Below, piece after piece: positions 44,128 through 52,715 of a stretch of 64,000 nucleotides of DNA. Below the pieces are notes generated by a model. That model worked only from the letters and a program-made list of their open reading frames with translations, had not been told where the DNA came from and did no database searches. The position numbers were made by a program, and so were the translations under genes. Source of the stretch: Escherichia coli (GTDB lineage: Bacteria > Pseudomonadota > Gammaproteobacteria > Enterobacterales > Enterobacteriaceae); the NCBI RefSeq assembly GCF_013315695.1, contig NZ_CP054353.1; one strand, written 5' to 3'. Position 1 is the first letter of the stretch. Each line of letters begins with the position of its first letter.

Positions 44128-44174
44128 TTTGTGATGCGCGGTGTTTTCATCGCGCTTAGCAAAGAACGTAATCA

Positions 44175-44208
44175 ACGCCGGGCCTGTTAACGCTGCCCGG
44201 CGTTTTTA
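44175..44208. terminator. rho-independent terminator after accC (also downstream of the convergent islet operon)
   Basis: CGCCGGGC-loop-GCCCGGCG hairpin followed by T5. Confidence 0.7.
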
Positions 44209-44218
44209 TTGCCGTTAG

Positions 44219-45265
44219 CTAACGGTAGCTTGCAATTTCCGCTTTCAACGCGCTAATTTCAGCATCGCCATCAACAATTCCCAGCTCAAAGCAGTATGTC
44301 TTTGTTTCCCCTGGCTCTATAAAGGGCAGACGCCCCTGCGCTCGTTCTTTATCACGACCGTCAGGAAAACTATTGCTGACCTCCAGCCCCATAACATATT
44401 CACCCGCGCCTAAATTTTTCCAGTGGATAAAGTTGGGTAGCTGCATGGTGTCGAATTTCTCGTAAATTCCCCACCCCAGTTCGGCGTTCACCAGCGCAAC
44501 TTTACTCATCCCCTGACTGTCGCTATTCAACGTGAGATAGTAAACCTGCTCGTCAAAACCGGGCTGTGGGGTACAAATCTCCAGATGACTGGTTAACCCT
44601 TCCGCCGCATGCGGGGTTCGTGGCGTTACGCTTTTAGCCGACAGCAAGATTTCTGCCTGTGGCGATAATAAAGGCCAGCCGTAATTAAAGTGATAAAGAA
44701 TTTGCAGCGGCTGGCGGGTGAAACCATGATTAGTCACCTTGTCTTCAATGCGCAGCACATTTTCGCCATAACGGCAGCGAATGGTCCTTTCCAGCGTCAG
44801 ATTTTCACCGAACAATCGTGTTTCCCGTACTTTGCCATTGATGACAAATTCAATGCCGTCGTCGGTCCGTTCTGTGCGATACCCCACCTCTTCTGCTGGA
44901 GTCGCAGCCAAACGCCCGTGTAACCCCAGCGTTTCTCCGTTATCCTCACAGGGCGTGCCAATGTAGCTAAGTCCGCAGGTAGTCAGTAACCCCGCGTAGA
45001 AGCTACGTAAAAACCCGTTGCCCTGAGACTCAAAAAAAGCGGGGGCGACAATGCCGTTGGGGGTGATAAAAGAGAGCGCAGTATCCTTGTAGCTGGCCCA
45101 TGCAATATCCAGCGCGCGATCTTTTACCACCGTAAATGCCAGTCCCGCACCAGTACGGACATCAAACGCTTCTGTCCCCTTTGCTCTGCCACTACGTAAC
45201 TCATAGTGTTTAATTCCGGCAACCTGCGAGAGATCGCCAATCCACGACCAAATTTCGTTTTTCAT
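44219..45265 (-). CDS. mutarotase-like / DUF4432-like protein (islet)
   Basis: 348-aa ORF overlapping the upstream kinase stop by 4 bp; family assignment from memory only. Confidence 0.6.
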   Translation of the reverse strand: MKNEIWSWIGDLSQVAGIKHYELRSGRAKGTEAFDVRTGAGLAFTVVKDRALDIAWASYKDTALSFITPNGIVAPAFFESQGNGFLRSFYAGLLTTCGLSYIGTPCEDNGETLGLHGRLAATPAEEVGYRTERTDDGIEFVINGKVRETRLFGENLTLERTIRCRYGENVLRIEDKVTNHGFTRQPLQILYHFNYGWPLLSPQAEILLSAKSVTPRTPHAAEGLTSHLEICTPQPGFDEQVYYLTLNSDSQGMSKVALVNAELGWGIYEKFDTMQLPNFIHWKNLGAGEYVMGLEVSNSFPDGRDKERAQGRLPFIEPGETKTYCFELGIVDGDAEISALKAEIASYR

Positions 45266-46224
45266 TGTGCTGCTTCCCGAATGGACATGTCATGGCGCTG
45301 GATGAACGCTTCGATTTCCGCAAGGCGAGACGTTCCCTCCATTGGGCCACGTCGGGTTACCGCCAGTGCACCGCAGGCGTTGGCATATTGTAATGCCCGA
45401 TGGGCGTCAAACCCTAGCTGGCGGCAGGCAATCCACGCGCCACCAAAACAGTCTCCCGCACCGGTCGGGTCAACTTCTTCCACCGGATAGCTCTCAACAT
45501 GAAACTGCTCATTCGCGGAGTAGTAACTGGCACCTTGATTGCCGCGCTTCACAATCACCTCTTTAACACCTTCTTCAAGAAAACCAGCGATTGCACGCTC
45601 CGGTGTCGAGTGTGGCGACAAGAGCAACACTTCTCCCTCGCTGGGCATATAGATATCTGTTAACTCAAGAACAAAGTGGAGGGCGTCACGCATTTCTGGA
45701 ATATCGAGCATCTCTTTCCGAATATTAGGGTCAAAAGAAATAACGCCACCATTCTCTTTTACAATGGTTACCGCTTTCTTTACTGCGTCTACCATATGGA
45801 ATGAAAACAGGGATGAACCCATAATATGAAAATGGGTACAGTCCTTCAGAATATTTTCATCAACATGCTGCGCCGATAATTTACCGCAAGCGGCATTCTT
45901 GATATTAAAAATAAAATCGCGATCGCCAGAGTTATGATAAGTAACAAAGGCACTCCCGGTAGCTTCCAGAGGTAAGACTGAAATCCCCCTGATATCCACA
46001 CCGTCAGCAGCCAGACGATGTATATTAATATCACCAAAGCCATCATTCCCCACACAGCTAATGATGCCGCACGGAACGCCAAGACGTGTCACCTGGTCGA
46101 TAAAAATAGCGGGTGCGCCACTGGGATAAGGGCCGTTCCAGATACCTGGTTGATCAAATGGCTGGCCGATTTTACTCGCCATAATTTCAACCAGAATTTC
46201 TCCAATTGTGAAGACCTTACTCAT
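45262..46224 (-). CDS. PfkB-family sugar kinase (islet kinase 1)
   Basis: 320-aa ORF with ribokinase-superfamily motifs (GG..N.A, DPTGAGDCF anion-hole). Confidence 0.85.
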   Translation of the reverse strand: MSKVFTIGEILVEIMASKIGQPFDQPGIWNGPYPSGAPAIFIDQVTRLGVPCGIISCVGNDGFGDINIHRLAADGVDIRGISVLPLEATGSAFVTYHNSGDRDFIFNIKNAACGKLSAQHVDENILKDCTHFHIMGSSLFSFHMVDAVKKAVTIVKENGGVISFDPNIRKEMLDIPEMRDALHFVLELTDIYMPSEGEVLLLSPHSTPERAIAGFLEEGVKEVIVKRGNQGASYYSANEQFHVESYPVEEVDPTGAGDCFGGAWIACRQLGFDAHRALQYANACGALAVTRRGPMEGTSRLAEIEAFIQRHDMSIREAAQ

Positions 46225-46245: not shown

Positions 46246-47235
46246 TTAGCTGCGTTTTCTTTTATTTCTTACGTCAAAATAAACGGCTACAAGAATGACT
46301 AATCCTTTAACCACCATCTGATAGAAATAGGGAACGTTCATTAAGTTCATGCCATTATTAATAACGCCGATGGTTAATGCCCCGATTACCGTCCCCACCA
46401 CGGTTCCATAGCCGCCGTTCAGGCTGGTGCCTCCCAGTACAGCCGCAGCAATAGCATCCAGTTCGTAGCTCAACGCGGAATTCGGTTGCCCGGAATAGAG
46501 GCGTGAGGCGAGGATCATCCCGCTGATACCTGCCAGCACAGCTGTAATCATAAAGACTTTTATTTTCAAGCGGGTGACATTTATCCCTGAATAAACTGCC
46601 GCTTCTTTATTACCACCAGTGATATAAATCTTTCGTCCAAAGGTTGTTTTAGTAAGAATGAAATGGTTAATCAGCAATAAGATAATTAATATCCAGATTG
46701 GAATAGGTATATAGAGAAATTCTCCATTCCCCAGCGCCAGAAAGGCATCATCTTTAATCATGATGGGCATACCATCGGTCACTATATAAGCGATACCACG
46801 GAAGATCCCCATAGTAGCAACGGTGACAATAAACGACGGGATCCCCGCTATAGCCGTCAAGCCACCATTTATCATCCCCAGAGCCAGGGCTGCAATAATG
46901 GATAATGGGACCAATAAAATAAATGGAATTCCCCATGAAGCCCCAAGCGCAGCAAATGTGCCAATCAATGCAATGGTTGAACCAACCGATAAATCAATAT
47001 CGCCAAGCAAAAGTACGTAAGTCATTCCATAGGCGGTAATTGCAATTATCGAAACCTGAAGAATAATATTAGTAATGTTATTGGCGGTAAAAAAACTGTC
47101 ATTAATAAAACTGAACAGAATGATTAACACCACCATTCCACTGAGGATACCGCCATATTGCCTGAAGACTTTTTTAAAATTATTTGCAATGGGAATTTCC
47201 GAAGGTTTCGGACTGGCAAGAGTTTTCTCTGTCAT
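46246..47235 (-). CDS. sugar ABC transporter permease (RbsC/AraH-like)
   Basis: 329-aa polytopic membrane protein abutting the ATPase gene. Confidence 0.85.
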   Translation of the reverse strand: MTEKTLASPKPSEIPIANNFKKVFRQYGGILSGMVVLIILFSFINDSFFTANNITNIILQVSIIAITAYGMTYVLLLGDIDLSVGSTIALIGTFAALGASWGIPFILLVPLSIIAALALGMINGGLTAIAGIPSFIVTVATMGIFRGIAYIVTDGMPIMIKDDAFLALGNGEFLYIPIPIWILIILLLINHFILTKTTFGRKIYITGGNKEAAVYSGINVTRLKIKVFMITAVLAGISGMILASRLYSGQPNSALSYELDAIAAAVLGGTSLNGGYGTVVGTVIGALTIGVINNGMNLMNVPYFYQMVVKGLVILVAVYFDVRNKRKRS

Positions 47236-48735
47236 TTAACGTACTCCTGTTGCAGCGGTCATTACCTGTGTCTGCGTTAAATTTTCACATGAATAAATAT
47301 CGGCAATCGTTTTATTACGCATTACCACCAGACGATCGCTAAGTGCCATGACTTCTGGCAGTTCAGAGGACACCAGAATAATTGCTGTCCCTGCCGCAGC
47401 CAGTTGACGTATCACGTTATAGATTTCAAATTTTGCGCCGACATCCACTCCGCGCGTTGGCTCATCGAGCAATAAAATACGCGGAGTTTTCTCCAGCCAC
47501 TTCGATAACACGATTTTCTGTTGATTACCGCCGCTCAGTGCTCCCACTGCCTGATGTACAGAACTCACTTTAGTGTTCATTCTGGCAATTGATTGCAGCG
47601 TCTTCGCCTCTTCTTGTCGGTGATTGATAAGTCCTATCCGCGAAGCGTTATATTGAAACGCCACATGGTGCGTGTTCATATTGACGTCGTGCATCAGCAC
47701 TAACCCTTCTTCCTTGCGGTTTTCGGTCACAAAAGCAATGCCATGATCAATAGCCTGTTTGGGATTAGCGATCCTGACTTCCTTACCATCAATCAACACA
47801 GTCCCGTGATACGAAACGAGGCCAAATAGCGCCTTCATCACATCGGAACGCCCGGCCCCCACCAGGCCAAAAAATCCGAGGACTTCCCCCGGACGCACAG
47901 CGAAACTGACCTCTTTAAAAAGCGAAGGATGGGAAAGGTTTTTTACTTCCAGTTTTGCAGGAACATTTTCATCCGGCTTTTCCCCAAGACGTGCTGGCCA
48001 AATATTTTTCATTTCCCGACCAACCATTTGGGCAATCAAATGCTGGATATCACTGTTTTTCTTTTCATGCGTAGCGATATACTCACCGTCGCGGATCACC
48101 GAAATATCATCTGAAATCCGCATAATTTCATCCATGCGATGAGAGATATAAATAACCGCACAACCTCGCTGCTTTAATTTCTCAATAATGTTAAACAGAA
48201 TCTCTGCTTCATTATCACTTAGCGAAGATGTCGGTTCATCCATAATCACGACATCTGCTGCATAGCTTAAGGCTTTGGCAATTTCTACCAGTTGCCTATG
48301 TGCCATCGACATATTGCCGACCATTTCCAGCGGATCCAGTGGGATGCCCAGTTCCGCGAGGAGATTCTGGCAATCTGCGAGCATTTTTTTATCGTTAATA
48401 ATGCCAAAACGTCGCGGTTCATTATTGGCATAAATATTTTCCGCCACGGTCATATTATTACTCAGGCTCAGTTCCTGAAAAATAATCGCAATCCCTAACT
48501 GGCGAGAATGCTGCGGATTATTAATGGTGATGGTTTCACCACGTAGTGTTATCGTTCCCTGGGTTGGCGGATAAACACCGGCGAGTATTTTCATTAATGT
48601 CGATTTACCGGCACCATTCTCGCCTAATAAAGTATGCACCCGCCCTTTACGTAAAGAGAGGGTAATATCTTTTAATGCCTGAACATGACCAAATGTCTTC
48701 GCAATATGCGAAACATCAAGAATAACATCCGTCAT
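47236..48735 (-). CDS. sugar ABC transporter ATP-binding protein, duplicated-domain type (RbsA-like)
   Basis: 499-aa ORF with two ABC cassettes (Walker A GENGAGKST, signature LSGGNQQK). Confidence 0.88.
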   Translation of the reverse strand: MTDVILDVSHIAKTFGHVQALKDITLSLRKGRVHTLLGENGAGKSTLMKILAGVYPPTQGTITLRGETITINNPQHSRQLGIAIIFQELSLSNNMTVAENIYANNEPRRFGIINDKKMLADCQNLLAELGIPLDPLEMVGNMSMAHRQLVEIAKALSYAADVVIMDEPTSSLSDNEAEILFNIIEKLKQRGCAVIYISHRMDEIMRISDDISVIRDGEYIATHEKKNSDIQHLIAQMVGREMKNIWPARLGEKPDENVPAKLEVKNLSHPSLFKEVSFAVRPGEVLGFFGLVGAGRSDVMKALFGLVSYHGTVLIDGKEVRIANPKQAIDHGIAFVTENRKEEGLVLMHDVNMNTHHVAFQYNASRIGLINHRQEEAKTLQSIARMNTKVSSVHQAVGALSGGNQQKIVLSKWLEKTPRILLLDEPTRGVDVGAKFEIYNVIRQLAAAGTAIILVSSELPEVMALSDRLVVMRNKTIADIYSCENLTQTQVMTAATGVR

Positions 48736-48795: not shown

Positions 48796-49686
48796 TCATT
48801 TACCTGTATAAACGCCGGGTTGTACCGGGATCATTTTTTCTACCGGTTTACCATTGAGGTGATCAACAGCGGCATCAATGGCTTTAGCACCCATTTGATC
48901 GGGATATTGCCGAATCACGGCCGCAAACGTTTTTTCACTGTCAACGGCATCACGCGCTTCTTTCATGCCGTCAAAACCAATGATTTTGATGTTGTCGTTA
49001 TGCGCAGATTTCGCTGCGATAACCGCTGCCAGCGCCGCATCATCACCAAAGCCAAACAGACCATTCAGGTTGGCATTTGCCTGCATAATGTTTTGCGCAG
49101 TCGTTAACGCTTCAGCCCGCGTAATACCAGGCTGTTCAGCAACAATTTTAATATCCGGTGTATCGCTTAACCCTTTCTTAAAACCATCAACGCGCGCAAC
49201 CACCGATTGTAATGCCGGATAAGAAATAATGGCTACAGTACCTTTACCATTCAAAAGTTTGCCCATTAACTTGCCTGCTTCAACGCCTCCCGCGTAGTTA
49301 TCGGTCGCAACATGCGATACGACCGGAACGCCTTCCGCAGCGACGTCGACGGTGATAACGGGAATACCGGCCTTATCGGCTTTAATTATCGCCGCCTGGA
49401 CGCCTTTCGAATCGACCGGAGAGATAATAATGGCATCCACTTTTTTAGTAATAAAATCCTCAACATCAGAAAGTTGTTTGTTTAAATCCTGATTGGCAAT
49501 AGAGACACTTAAATTGACATTGTCTTTTTTTGCCTCTTCTTTCATGGCATTCGCAAGATCAATATAGAAAGGATGTTGCTGTGTTAATAATGACGCACCA
49601 ATTTTATACTCTTTTGCCAACGAGCTTTGCGAGAACAATGCCAGGCTCACCAACATAGCTGAACCAAGTAATTTAATATTTTTCAT
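48796..49686 (-). CDS. periplasmic sugar-binding protein (RbsB-like)
   Basis: 296-aa ORF with signal peptide MKNIKLLGSAMLVSLALFSQSSLA. Confidence 0.85.
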   Translation of the reverse strand: MKNIKLLGSAMLVSLALFSQSSLAKEYKIGASLLTQQHPFYIDLANAMKEEAKKDNVNLSVSIANQDLNKQLSDVEDFITKKVDAIIISPVDSKGVQAAIIKADKAGIPVITVDVAAEGVPVVSHVATDNYAGGVEAGKLMGKLLNGKGTVAIISYPALQSVVARVDGFKKGLSDTPDIKIVAEQPGITRAEALTTAQNIMQANANLNGLFGFGDDAALAAVIAAKSAHNDNIKIIGFDGMKEARDAVDSEKTFAAVIRQYPDQMGAKAIDAAVDHLNGKPVEKMIPVQPGVYTGK

Positions 49687-49721: not shown

Positions 49722-50603
<882 letters not shown>

Positions 50604-50917
50604 TTACAAAATGAAGAAAGAGAATCTTCACTTTCATTTTGAAAGCAAACTAGCACAGCAAAAGCGGCAAAAAGCGTGATGCATGTCGAATATCATCAAA
50701 ATAACTTACAAAAAATAACTTAATTTGTTTTTTACTTTGTAAGTGAAACCAATGACACCTCTGCATAAATATGAATATATTCATTTATTTTTCAATGTAT
50801 TAAGCTATTTTCGTTGCGATTTTTGACCCATGATTTTCTTTTCGAATTGTCGATATTATTGAAGGGTAACTTTCAAAGAAAAATACAAGGGGCTATAGTG
50901 TTACGCATTAAAGGCCA

Positions 50918-51748
50918 ATGAAGAGTGTTAACGTGCCGAGAAAATCGTCTAACCTACTGAAACGCAGATTAAAAATTGCAGAAATTGTTGCCGCCCAGGG
51001 TGAAATCAAAGTTGATGACTTATCTGCGCAACTTGGTGTCTCTAGCGTGACGATCCGCGGCGATCTCAGTTATCTGGAGCAACAGGGATATTTAAAGCGA
51101 TCATTTGGCGGTGCTATTGCGACACCACTCTCCTCTGAACCAGAAGCGATACAACCGATCGCGCCGTTGTCTCTGGCACAACAAATGGAAATAGCACGAC
51201 ATTGCGCACGGTTAATTCGGGATCGTGACACGCTATTTCTTGGACATGGGACAATCTGCCGTAAGATCATTCCCTTGCTCAGCGAAGTGAAAAAACTGCG
51301 TCTGATCACCAACGATCCCGAACATGCGCTGCTGGCAAATCAGTTTATTGATGGCGAAATAATACTGGCTGGCAGTGAAATGCTGCGCCCCGATACCGCA
51401 CTGGCCGGAAAACCTCTCGAACAGGCACTTCAGCATTTCACCATTACACATAGCATTCTGGAAATCAGCCATCTGGATGCTGATGGTACTTTAAATATCA
51501 ACGTTCCCAGACTTGCCGCTGCCTGGCAGCTCTGTTTCGATAATGCCCAGAATAAGACGGTTATCGTTGCCGCCGATCCTGCGCCATCAACGGCTGCTAT
51601 CGGGCATTTGCATCAAGCAGAAAATGTGATCGTCAGCCGCAGCATTAACGAACAATATCAGCAACAATTGCAGTCGGCTGATTTCGTTATCCTTTATACC
51701 AGTAATGAGTGCTTTACCTGGTCCAATCGCGAAAGGCTTCAGGAATGA
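50918..51748 (+). CDS. DeoR-family transcriptional regulator
   Basis: 276-aa ORF with N-terminal DeoR HTH (LSAQLGVSSVTIRGDL) and sugar-phosphate-binding C-domain; divergent from the aldolase-ABC operon. Confidence 0.8.
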   Translation: MKSVNVPRKSSNLLKRRLKIAEIVAAQGEIKVDDLSAQLGVSSVTIRGDLSYLEQQGYLKRSFGGAIATPLSSEPEAIQPIAPLSLAQQMEIARHCARLIRDRDTLFLGHGTICRKIIPLLSEVKKLRLITNDPEHALLANQFIDGEIILAGSEMLRPDTALAGKPLEQALQHFTITHSILEISHLDADGTLNINVPRLAAAWQLCFDNAQNKTVIVAADPAPSTAAIGHLHQAENVIVSRSINEQYQQQLQSADFVILYTSNECFTWSNRERLQE

Positions 51749-51758
51749 GAGGGGTTTT

Positions 51759-52715
51759 GTGACAATAACTATCTGCGCTATGGGCGAATTGCTGGCCGAG
51801 TTTTTGTCCCGCAACCCACATCAAAAATTCACTCAGCCTGGGGAGTTTATCGGGCCATTTCCCAGCGGTGCACCAGCAATTTTTGCTGCTCAGGTGGCAA
51901 AACTGTCCCATCGGGCCATCTTCTTCGGATGTGTTGGTAATGATGATTTTGGCCGACTCATTATAGAGCGTCTCCGTCATGAAGGTGTCATTACCGATGG
52001 GATTCACGTTATGAACAATGCCGTCACAGGTACGGCGTTCGTGAGTTATCAAAATCCCCAGCAGCGGGATTTCGTCTTTAATATCCCTAACAGCGCCTGC
52101 GGTTTGTTTACTGCCGAGCACATTGATAAGGATCTGCTTAAACAGTGTAACCATCTGCATATTGTGGGCTCATCGTTGTTCTCATTTCGCATGATCGATG
52201 TCATGCGTAAAGCAATAACGACGATCAAATCGGCTGGCGGAACCGTTTCTTTCGATCCCAATATTCGCAAAGAGATGCTGAGCATTCCTGAAATGGCGCA
52301 GGCCCTCGATTATTTGATTGAATATACGGATATTTTTATCCCCAGCGAAAGCGAACTCCCTTTCTTCGCGCGTCACAAAAATCTGTCAGAAGAACAGATT
52401 GTTAGCGATCTTCTCCACGGCGGCGTAAAACATGTGGCGATAAAACGCGCCCAGCGTGGGGCCAGCTATTACAAGCTTAAAAACGGTACATTACACGCCC
52501 AGCATGTTACAGGCCACGATATCGAAATTATCGATCCAACGGGTGCAGGCGACTGCTTTGGCGCAACGTTTATCACTCTTTTCTTATCCGGTTTCCCGGC
52601 ACACAAGGCGCTGCAATATGCAAATGCCAGCGGCGCGCTCGCCGTAATGCAGCAAGGTCCGATGGAAGGGATATCCTCACTGACTGACATTGAAGACTTT
52701 TTGCAGCAGCACTGA
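51759..52715 (+). CDS. PfkB-family sugar kinase (islet kinase 2, paralog of kinase 1)
   Basis: About 50% identical to kinase 1 over its full length; GTG start chosen after RBS GAGAGGGG and by alignment with the kinase 1 N-terminus. Confidence 0.8.
   Translation: MTITICAMGELLAEFLSRNPHQKFTQPGEFIGPFPSGAPAIFAAQVAKLSHRAIFFGCVGNDDFGRLIIERLRHEGVITDGIHVMNNAVTGTAFVSYQNPQQRDFVFNIPNSACGLFTAEHIDKDLLKQCNHLHIVGSSLFSFRMIDVMRKAITTIKSAGGTVSFDPNIRKEMLSIPEMAQALDYLIEYTDIFIPSESELPFFARHKNLSEEQIVSDLLHGGVKHVAIKRAQRGASYYKLKNGTLHAQHVTGHDIEIIDPTGAGDCFGATFITLFLSGFPAHKALQYANASGALAVMQQGPMEGISSLTDIEDFLQQH

Follow-up and report, generated by a model that had tools for sequence, protein, structure and literature searches.

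We examined a 64,000-nucleotide stretch of an Escherichia coli genome (NCBI RefSeq assembly GCF_013315695.1, contig NZ_CP054353.1), referred to below as the window, and focused on tagE, the last gene of a sugar-utilization islet between accC and yhdT. In this islet, tagY, tagA, tagB, tagC, tagD, and tagE lie on one strand, and tagR and tagK are divergent. The initial annotation, made from the letters of the window, had placed a 348-residue open reading frame (ORF) at 44219-45265, in the distal position of the operon and with a 4-bp overlap with the kinase gene. The ORF list and the sequence agree with all of this, and the ORF list adds that the gene is on the minus strand and starts with ATG. 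The plus-strand translation of the interval is riddled with stops, and the minus strand is open throughout. tagE closes an operon of six genes, all on the minus strand.

The islet is the D-tagatose cluster that Ha et al. (2022; PMC9720028) reported from E. coli Nissle 1917, and the gene names tagY, tagA, tagB, tagC, tagD, tagE, tagR, and tagK come from a 2025 paper (PMC12226905). The identification is based on gene content, gene order, insertion site, and the 341-bp gap between the divergent units. The ORF at 44219-45265 is tagE; the locus and the gene are already published and annotated, in RefSeq as an ‘aldose 1-epimerase family protein’. According to Ha et al., all six operon genes rise more than 40-fold, and up to more than 1000-fold, on tagatose, and K-12 with the six genes grows on tagatose, but only with PfkA (PMC9720028). 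The PfkA dependence indicates a route from tagatose through tagatose 6-phosphate (Tag-6-P) and tagatose 1,6-bisphosphate to trioses. The cluster was found in 93% of phylogroup B2 (PMC9720028).

tagE is a real gene and no chance ORF, because it has a full-length Pfam match, 3177 cluster representatives related to it at E ≤ 1e-3, a low ratio of nonsynonymous to synonymous substitution rates (dN/dS), and a RefSeq annotation. Compared with the orthologues of E. coli E69, Superficieibacter electus, and Enterobacter sp., dN/dS is 0.03-0.09 for tagE and similar for tagD (0.03-0.055), and tagE is under strong purifying selection. The two genes are co-transcribed. The stop codon of tagD (TGA) and the start codon of tagE (ATG) share the sequence ATGA, an arrangement that suggests translational coupling and recurs in the orthologous clusters of all three of these organisms. 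GGGAAG, located 8 nt upstream of the tagE ATG, is a plausible ribosome-binding site. We consider tagE to be probably coupled to tagD at translation.

The initial annotation had tentatively assigned the protein to a DUF4432-like, mutarotase-like family. A hidden Markov model search against Pfam bears out the family (DUF4432, PF14486) with E = 2.9e-104 and 348.6 bits, where the cutoff is 32.5. The match is full length, covering TagE residues 29-329 and profile positions 2-303 of 304. The mutarotase-like fold also held in a comparison with galactose mutarotase-type structures: TagE has a stand-alone mutarotase β-sandwich fold and shares the three-dimensional structure of 3TY1, a solved DUF4432 member. 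No NCBIfam model matches TagE, and the Pfam scan gave no match to PF01263 (Aldose_epim) at E ≤ 0.01. TagE is a superfamily relative and no PF01263 member, because the Aldose_epim model does not match it. Searches of TagE and DUF4432 with phmmer and hmmsearch against GalM, YeaD, YphB, and YihR returned nothing significant; an unfiltered hmmsearch against GalM-type proteins gave sub-threshold matches only, yet on the correct motifs.

The catalytic residues of mutarotases are recognizable in TagE. Eight residues, H116, G117, R160, N179, H192, G196, P198, and Y290, do not vary across 53 homologues with 32-83% identity; E295, P296, D175, K283, W282, R50, and N194 reach at least 90% conservation. 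When the PDB was searched with a profile, the LHG, YHxN, and GLEP motifs fell on HG, YH, and EP of 3OS7 and of Bacillus subtilis GalM (4BZF), with weak scores (E = 0.023 and 0.66). An hhalign comparison of the DUF4432 alignment with the single E. coli GalM sequence gave no match, nor did a global comparison with four E. coli paralogues. A local alignment against an enriched GalM-type profile (E. coli GalM, YeaD, YphB, and YihR with fragments of 3OS7 and 4BZF), the only significant setup, reached a probability of 92.8% and E = 3.9e-7 over 204 columns. It pairs TagE H116 with GalM H104, H192 with H175, E295 with E309, and E239 with D245, the last an Asp to Glu replacement. The four GalM positions correspond to those of the Lactococcus lactis GalM mutant structures H96N, H170N, D243N/A, and E304Q/A. 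From the work of Frey and Holden, we take these positions to be the mutarotase acid/base pair and sugar-binding residues. At the level of the alignment, TagE retains the catalytic equipment of a mutarotase, with two histidines, a glutamate, and a further acidic residue.

These features can be related to the chemistry of the substrate. D-tagatose is mostly α-D-tagatopyranose (PMC12429656); our literature search found this qualitative statement and no tautomer percentages. The Vibrio cholerae fructokinase, a PfkB ketohexose 6-kinase, binds the β-furanose, exposing only O6 (PMC6240065). A 6-kinase cannot use the dominant pyranose, because O6 is the ring oxygen there. We propose that TagE is a cytoplasmic mutarotase that opens the dominant D-tagatose pyranose, so that the furanose reaches the 6-kinase TagD, and we give this reading a probability of roughly 0.55. 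The substrate and the flux benefit are the parts of it that we infer. In the proposed pathway, the Rbs-like ATP-binding cassette (ABC) transporter would bring in free D-tagatose, mainly as α-D-tagatopyranose. TagD would accept only open-chain tagatose or the furanose, the sole ring form with a free 6-OH. TagE would open the tagatose hemiketal by acid/base catalysis, as GalM does on aldoses, and the open keto form would re-close to the furanose and keep TagD supplied. Since all ring-form interconversions pass through the open keto form, TagE would speed every one of them. The resulting Tag-6-P would then enter glycolysis through PfkA and the aldolase TagY. The logic would be that of RbsD with RbsK for ribose, on another fold. 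A tagE knockout is predicted to grow more slowly on tagatose or after a longer lag, with growth not lost.

We inspected the gene neighbourhoods of DUF4432 in other genomes. From a 17-sequence alignment, 80 reference-genome loci were taken, of which 79 were analysable; flanking ORFs were called and clustered, and the representatives were annotated with Pfam. Six metagenomic contexts with precomputed Pfam labels were also considered. Within five genes of DUF4432, 49 of the 79 loci contain a recognizable sugar-catabolic gene and 36 a transporter component. Over the same distance, PfkB or FGGY kinases occur in 29 loci (directly adjacent in 11), Lyx_isomer or Fucose_iso_C isomerases in 12, glycoside hydrolase family 38 or 92 (GH38/GH92) mannosidases in 11 (adjacent in 10), class II ketose-bisphosphate aldolases in 9 (adjacent in 4), and RbsD/FucU in 5, always directly adjacent. 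Three further loci have a divergent cupin isomerase. In the approximately 90 DUF4432 loci fetched, no ORF of 200 residues or more encodes a canonical PF01263 mutarotase. Annotation of 85 further DUF4432 neighbours revealed no dominant family.

Several layouts recur. One is the enterobacterial tag operon. A second, in Bacteroidota, contains GH38, DUF4432, a major facilitator superfamily transporter, a mannose/lyxose isomerase, a PfkB kinase, and a mannitol dehydrogenase. A third, with isomerase, DUF4432, aldolase, and FGGY kinase, follows the plan of fucose/rhamnose operons, whose fourth member is usually a mutarotase. A kinase-free layout combines an ABC transporter, DUF4432, a dehydrogenase, and a lactonase. 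The neighbourhoods point to a free sugar, and not a sugar phosphate, as the DUF4432 family substrate, and would fit a generic accessory mutarotase. The Bacteroidota α-mannosidase cluster, with GH38 and also GH92, was seen in L022, L025, L026, L028, L034, L083, L085, and other loci. It looks like a route from mannoside through mannose and fructose to fructose 6-phosphate that would bypass mannose 6-phosphate. A literature search on clusters of GH38, lyxose isomerase, and epimerase found nothing relevant. Five loci of Konateibacter and Blautia (L057, L068, L073, L081, and L084) encode, in an order that all of them share, an ABC transporter, RbsD/FucU, DUF4432, a 445-residue protein, an FGGY kinase, a GFO/IDH oxidoreductase, and a xylose-isomerase-like TIM barrel. 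The 445-residue protein of these five loci has no Pfam match and a weak match to the phosphomannose isomerase 1QWR (E = 0.03). In two loci, both A3 members, galT lies within two genes of DUF4432, the usual place of galM, which hints that DUF4432 may replace GalM in some Leloir operons.

Several points weigh against TagE as a tagatose mutarotase. To our knowledge, mutarotases of this fold act on aldoses and aldose phosphates, and we know of none that is ketose-specific. Neither Pfam nor phmmer picks up the weak sequence similarity between TagE and PF01263, and the residue mapping comes from one enriched profile alignment, not from superposed coordinates. RbsD/FucU stands directly beside DUF4432 in the five Blautia and Konateibacter loci, so neither family simply substitutes for the other. 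The tagatose clusters of α- and β-proteobacteria function without a DUF4432 gene; because the rhizobial ones do so, TagE should be accessory. The initial annotation had described the protein as one of unknown function, and the literature bears this out. Ha et al. list the ‘putative aldose 1-epimerase’ as untested (PMC9720028), and full-text searches for DUF4432, PF14486, 3TY1, and KPN_04629 brought up nothing about function. The literature search found no enzymatic or genetic assay of TagE or of any DUF4432 protein.

Among the alternatives, TagE may act one step later, as a mutarotase for the α and β anomers of Tag-6-P ahead of PfkA, in the manner of YeaD and Ymr099c on hexose 6-phosphates. 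The fold permits such a role and the conserved Arg and Lys residues could bind phosphate, but many DUF4432 contexts lack a kinase or phosphosugars (those with a dehydrogenase and a lactonase, those with GH38, and the probably periplasmic subfamily with a signal peptide), and the scores of TagE against phosphosugar mutarotases are no better than those against GalM-type enzymes. Furanose phosphates also anomerize fast unaided. We regard this role as unlikely.

About equally improbable is that TagE is an ordinary aldose mutarotase serving another natural substrate of the transporter and not tagatose. About 20 of the 79 loci pair DUF4432 with an aldose-ketose isomerase (Lyx_isomer, Fucose_iso_C, or the divergent cupins), for which an aldose mutarotase is the classical partner, and the two galT neighbourhoods agree with this. 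The E. coli islet itself, however, has no isomerase by Pfam or annotation. The strong induction of its operon by tagatose and the growth that its six genes confer on K-12 also argue against this reading, as does the coupling of tagE to the tagatose kinase gene itself.

The initial annotation had offered two functions, an enzyme fixing either the anomer or the epimer used by the kinase. The first option, broadened to ring forms, gains from the retained catalytic set. The second would make TagE a true epimerase or isomerase that replaces the rhizobial Tag-6-P 4-epimerase; it might, for example, turn tagatose into fructose or sorbose, or produce tagatose from galactose. In the Sinorhizobium meliloti-type clusters, the Tag-6-P epimerase gene holds the place that tagE has here (PMC9720028). 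The two proteins appear unrelated, though; no cofactor or metal motif was seen in TagE, and the pathway needs no epimerization, which leaves this option with very little probability. Least probable of all is a non-catalytic role as a partner of TagY (a stabilizer or activator like GatZ/KbaZ) or as a sugar-binding regulator: such a partner would suit the aldolase neighbours counted above, an aldolase adjacent to DUF4432 in L005 and a few genes off in L004, and the 63.7% identity of TagY to the GatZ-requiring GatY in an islet that has no gatZ homologue, but 70 of the 79 loci have no class II aldolase, a scaffold has no need of the invariant or near-invariant family-wide His/His/Glu, and a probably periplasmic DUF4432 subfamily exists.

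The remaining features of the islet are listed in Table 1.

Table 1. Genes and noncoding features accompanying tagE in the accC/yhdT islet of the window
Feature	Description	Position	Strand	Evidence
Hairpin	between convergent tagE and accC	44174..44204	unstranded	perfect 10-bp stem
ATGA overlap	tagD stop (TGA) / tagE start (ATG)	45262..45265	minus	sequence
tagD	PfkB-family D-tagatose 6-kinase	45262..46224	minus	PF00294, E = 4.7e-42
tagC	ABC permease, RbsC/AraH-like	46246..47235	minus	PF02653; NCBIfam
tagB	ABC ATPase, two ATP-binding domains	47236..48735	minus	PF00005 in two stretches; NCBIfam
tagA	periplasmic sugar-binding protein	48796..49686	minus	PF13407; RbsB model, E = 5.7e-47
tagY	GatY-like class II tagatose-1,6-bisphosphate aldolase, first operon gene	49722..50576	minus	PF01116, E = 1.6e-100
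tagY/tagR region	divergent regulatory region, 341 bp	50577..50917	unstranded	length equal to the published value for E. coli Nissle 1917
tagR	DeoR/GlpR-family regulator	50918..51748	plus	PF08220, PF00455; annotation; named in PMC12226905
tagK	second PfkB kinase, tagatose kinase paralogue	51780..52715	plus	PF00294

For both kinases, the best NCBIfam model is TagKinase, which TagD matches with 413.9 bits, slightly below the cutoff of 420, and TagK with 342.5 bits, also under it. TagD is nearly identical to PDB entries 3IQ0 and 3K9E over the full length (E = 1.7e-217). These were deposited as ‘putative ribokinase II’, so a tagatose kinase structure already exists under an uninformative name. Within the cluster, tagD is the only gene that was deleted singly and then tested, in the E. 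coli Nissle 1917 mutant EcN-delta-1 (PMC9720028). The same source reports that tagK rises only about two-fold on tagatose and that the six-gene tag cluster without tagK sufficed for growth of K-12. TagY matches the NCBIfam GatY subfamily model with 528.9 bits, over its cutoff. TagA is closest to ribose-binding proteins, with PDB matches of E = 1e-34 to 7e-48. Promoter-like hexamers at 50752-50803 lie on both strands of the divergent region and are consensus matches only. The hairpin downstream of tagE was evaluated in both directions: on the minus strand it has -21.6 kcal/mol (z = -2.6) without a U-tract, and in the plus-strand context it has -41.2 kcal/mol (z = -4.6) and is followed by UUUUUAUU, a U-tract. 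Because the U-tract follows on the plus strand, we assign the hairpin to accC as its terminator. Between acuI and accB, the window also encodes a 276-residue ‘hypothetical protein’ (WP_000838294.1; 40601-41431, plus strand). It has a sub-threshold DUF1444 match only (E = 0.009), and about 860 bp without an annotated gene separate it from accB.

Of 5426 complete E. coli genomes, 1422 contain the accC/yhdT islet, and the region in the window shows 100% identity to E. coli strain MSB1_4I. The tagE gene is full length, with 95-100% identity, in every one of the 1421 E. coli genomes that have it, sequence type 131 (ST131) and avian pathogenic E. coli (APEC) O18 strains among them. The window carries a less common allele; the copies of 230 genomes match it at 99% identity or more and those of 1191 genomes at 95-99%. 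The tagE gene of ‘E. coli strain E69’ (L011, 8001-9047) differs from the window copy by dS = 0.49, well above the within-species norm. It seems that the islet comes in distinct allelic versions, unless E69 represents a divergent lineage. Apart from two plasmid places in the cluster search and one in the tagE search, the islet is chromosomal. We also considered a 493-residue E. coli protein (P0017) as a natural fusion of kinase and DUF4432. In it, the tagD product minus its C-terminal end is joined to TagE from about residue 156, and the N-terminal half of TagE is removed; we rejected it as an internal deletion in one assembly.

Since the locus and the operon are already in the literature, what is new here is the proposed biochemical role of TagE and DUF4432. 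The family comprises more than 3000 cluster representatives without a characterized member. If the ring-opening role of TagE is true, TagE fills the one unassigned step of a pathway found in about one quarter of complete E. coli genomes, a large DUF receives its first functional annotation, and the GalM-type mechanism is extended from aldoses to ketoses. A possible use is the engineering of tagatose-inducible or tagatose-consuming strains, e.g., of Nissle 1917. Nothing in these findings overturns current understanding, and TagE would be an ordinary accessory enzyme. A wider claim, which we put forward tentatively and rate at somewhat under an even chance, is that DUF4432 is a second widespread family of sugar mutarotases, with thousands of members in bacteria and some archaea and with cytoplasmic and periplasmic branches. 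TagE would then be the first demonstrated ketohexose ring opener (α-D-tagatopyranose to furanose), an independent analogue of RbsD on the GalM fold that could set the rate at which B2 E. coli consume the sweetener tagatose in the gut.

The window islet resembles the Nissle tag cluster in its accC/yhdT locus, its order of six plus two genes, the 341-bp divergent gap, and its annotation. By locus, order, spacing, and annotation, we see no structural difference between the two tagE genes (locus tags ECOLIN_RS18670 / HW372_RS02470). The rhizobial protein is a different case. With DUF4432 as the sole Pfam match of TagE, we found no homology to the Tag-6-P 4-epimerase called ‘TagE’ in S. meliloti and Agrobacterium tumefaciens. 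Ha et al. call the E. coli and rhizobial epimerase sequences highly divergent (PMC9720028). The name tagE denotes the DUF4432 gene in PMC12226905, but the Tag-6-P epimerase of S. meliloti in PMC9720028, and the shared name could mislead automated transfer of annotation.

Compared with GalM (EC 5.1.3.3, PF01263; E. coli GalM and L. lactis 1L7J), TagE has about 12-16% identity and a template-modelling (TM) score of about 0.6. The substrate of GalM is an aldose hemiacetal, whereas that proposed for TagE is a ketohexose hemiketal. Two E. coli K-12 proteins, the sulfoquinovose mutarotase YihR and YphB, are of the PF01263 type, with aldoses as their known or presumed substrates. The layout of the tag operon has parallels in K-12, in yphFEDCB, where the mutarotase comes last after an ABC transporter, and in yihR-S-T-V. 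The only solved DUF4432 structure, 3TY1 (KPN_04629 of Klebsiella pneumoniae), belongs to a subfamily of 402 residues with a clear signal peptide, in contrast to the cytoplasmic TagE of 348 residues, and is itself uncharacterized. This subfamily is probably a periplasmic branch of DUF4432, as its signal peptide suggests. In the Serratia context examined (P0270 and P0316; L095/L096, 7001-8209), its member is a stand-alone gene beside a liv-type ABC transporter.

The closest parallel to the proposed role is the ribose operon rbsDACBK. RbsD interconverts the ring forms of ribose and feeds RbsK. TagE is unlike RbsD and FucU (PF05025) in fold and sequence, and the Pfam search did not place it in their family, DUF4432 being the sole match. 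The other components correspond directly, as TagA is a homologue of RbsB, TagB of RbsA, TagC of RbsC, and TagD of RbsK. Both systems would combine import of a pyranose by a binding-protein ABC transporter, a small cytoplasmic enzyme acting on ring forms, the part proposed for TagE, and a PfkB kinase acting on the furanose.
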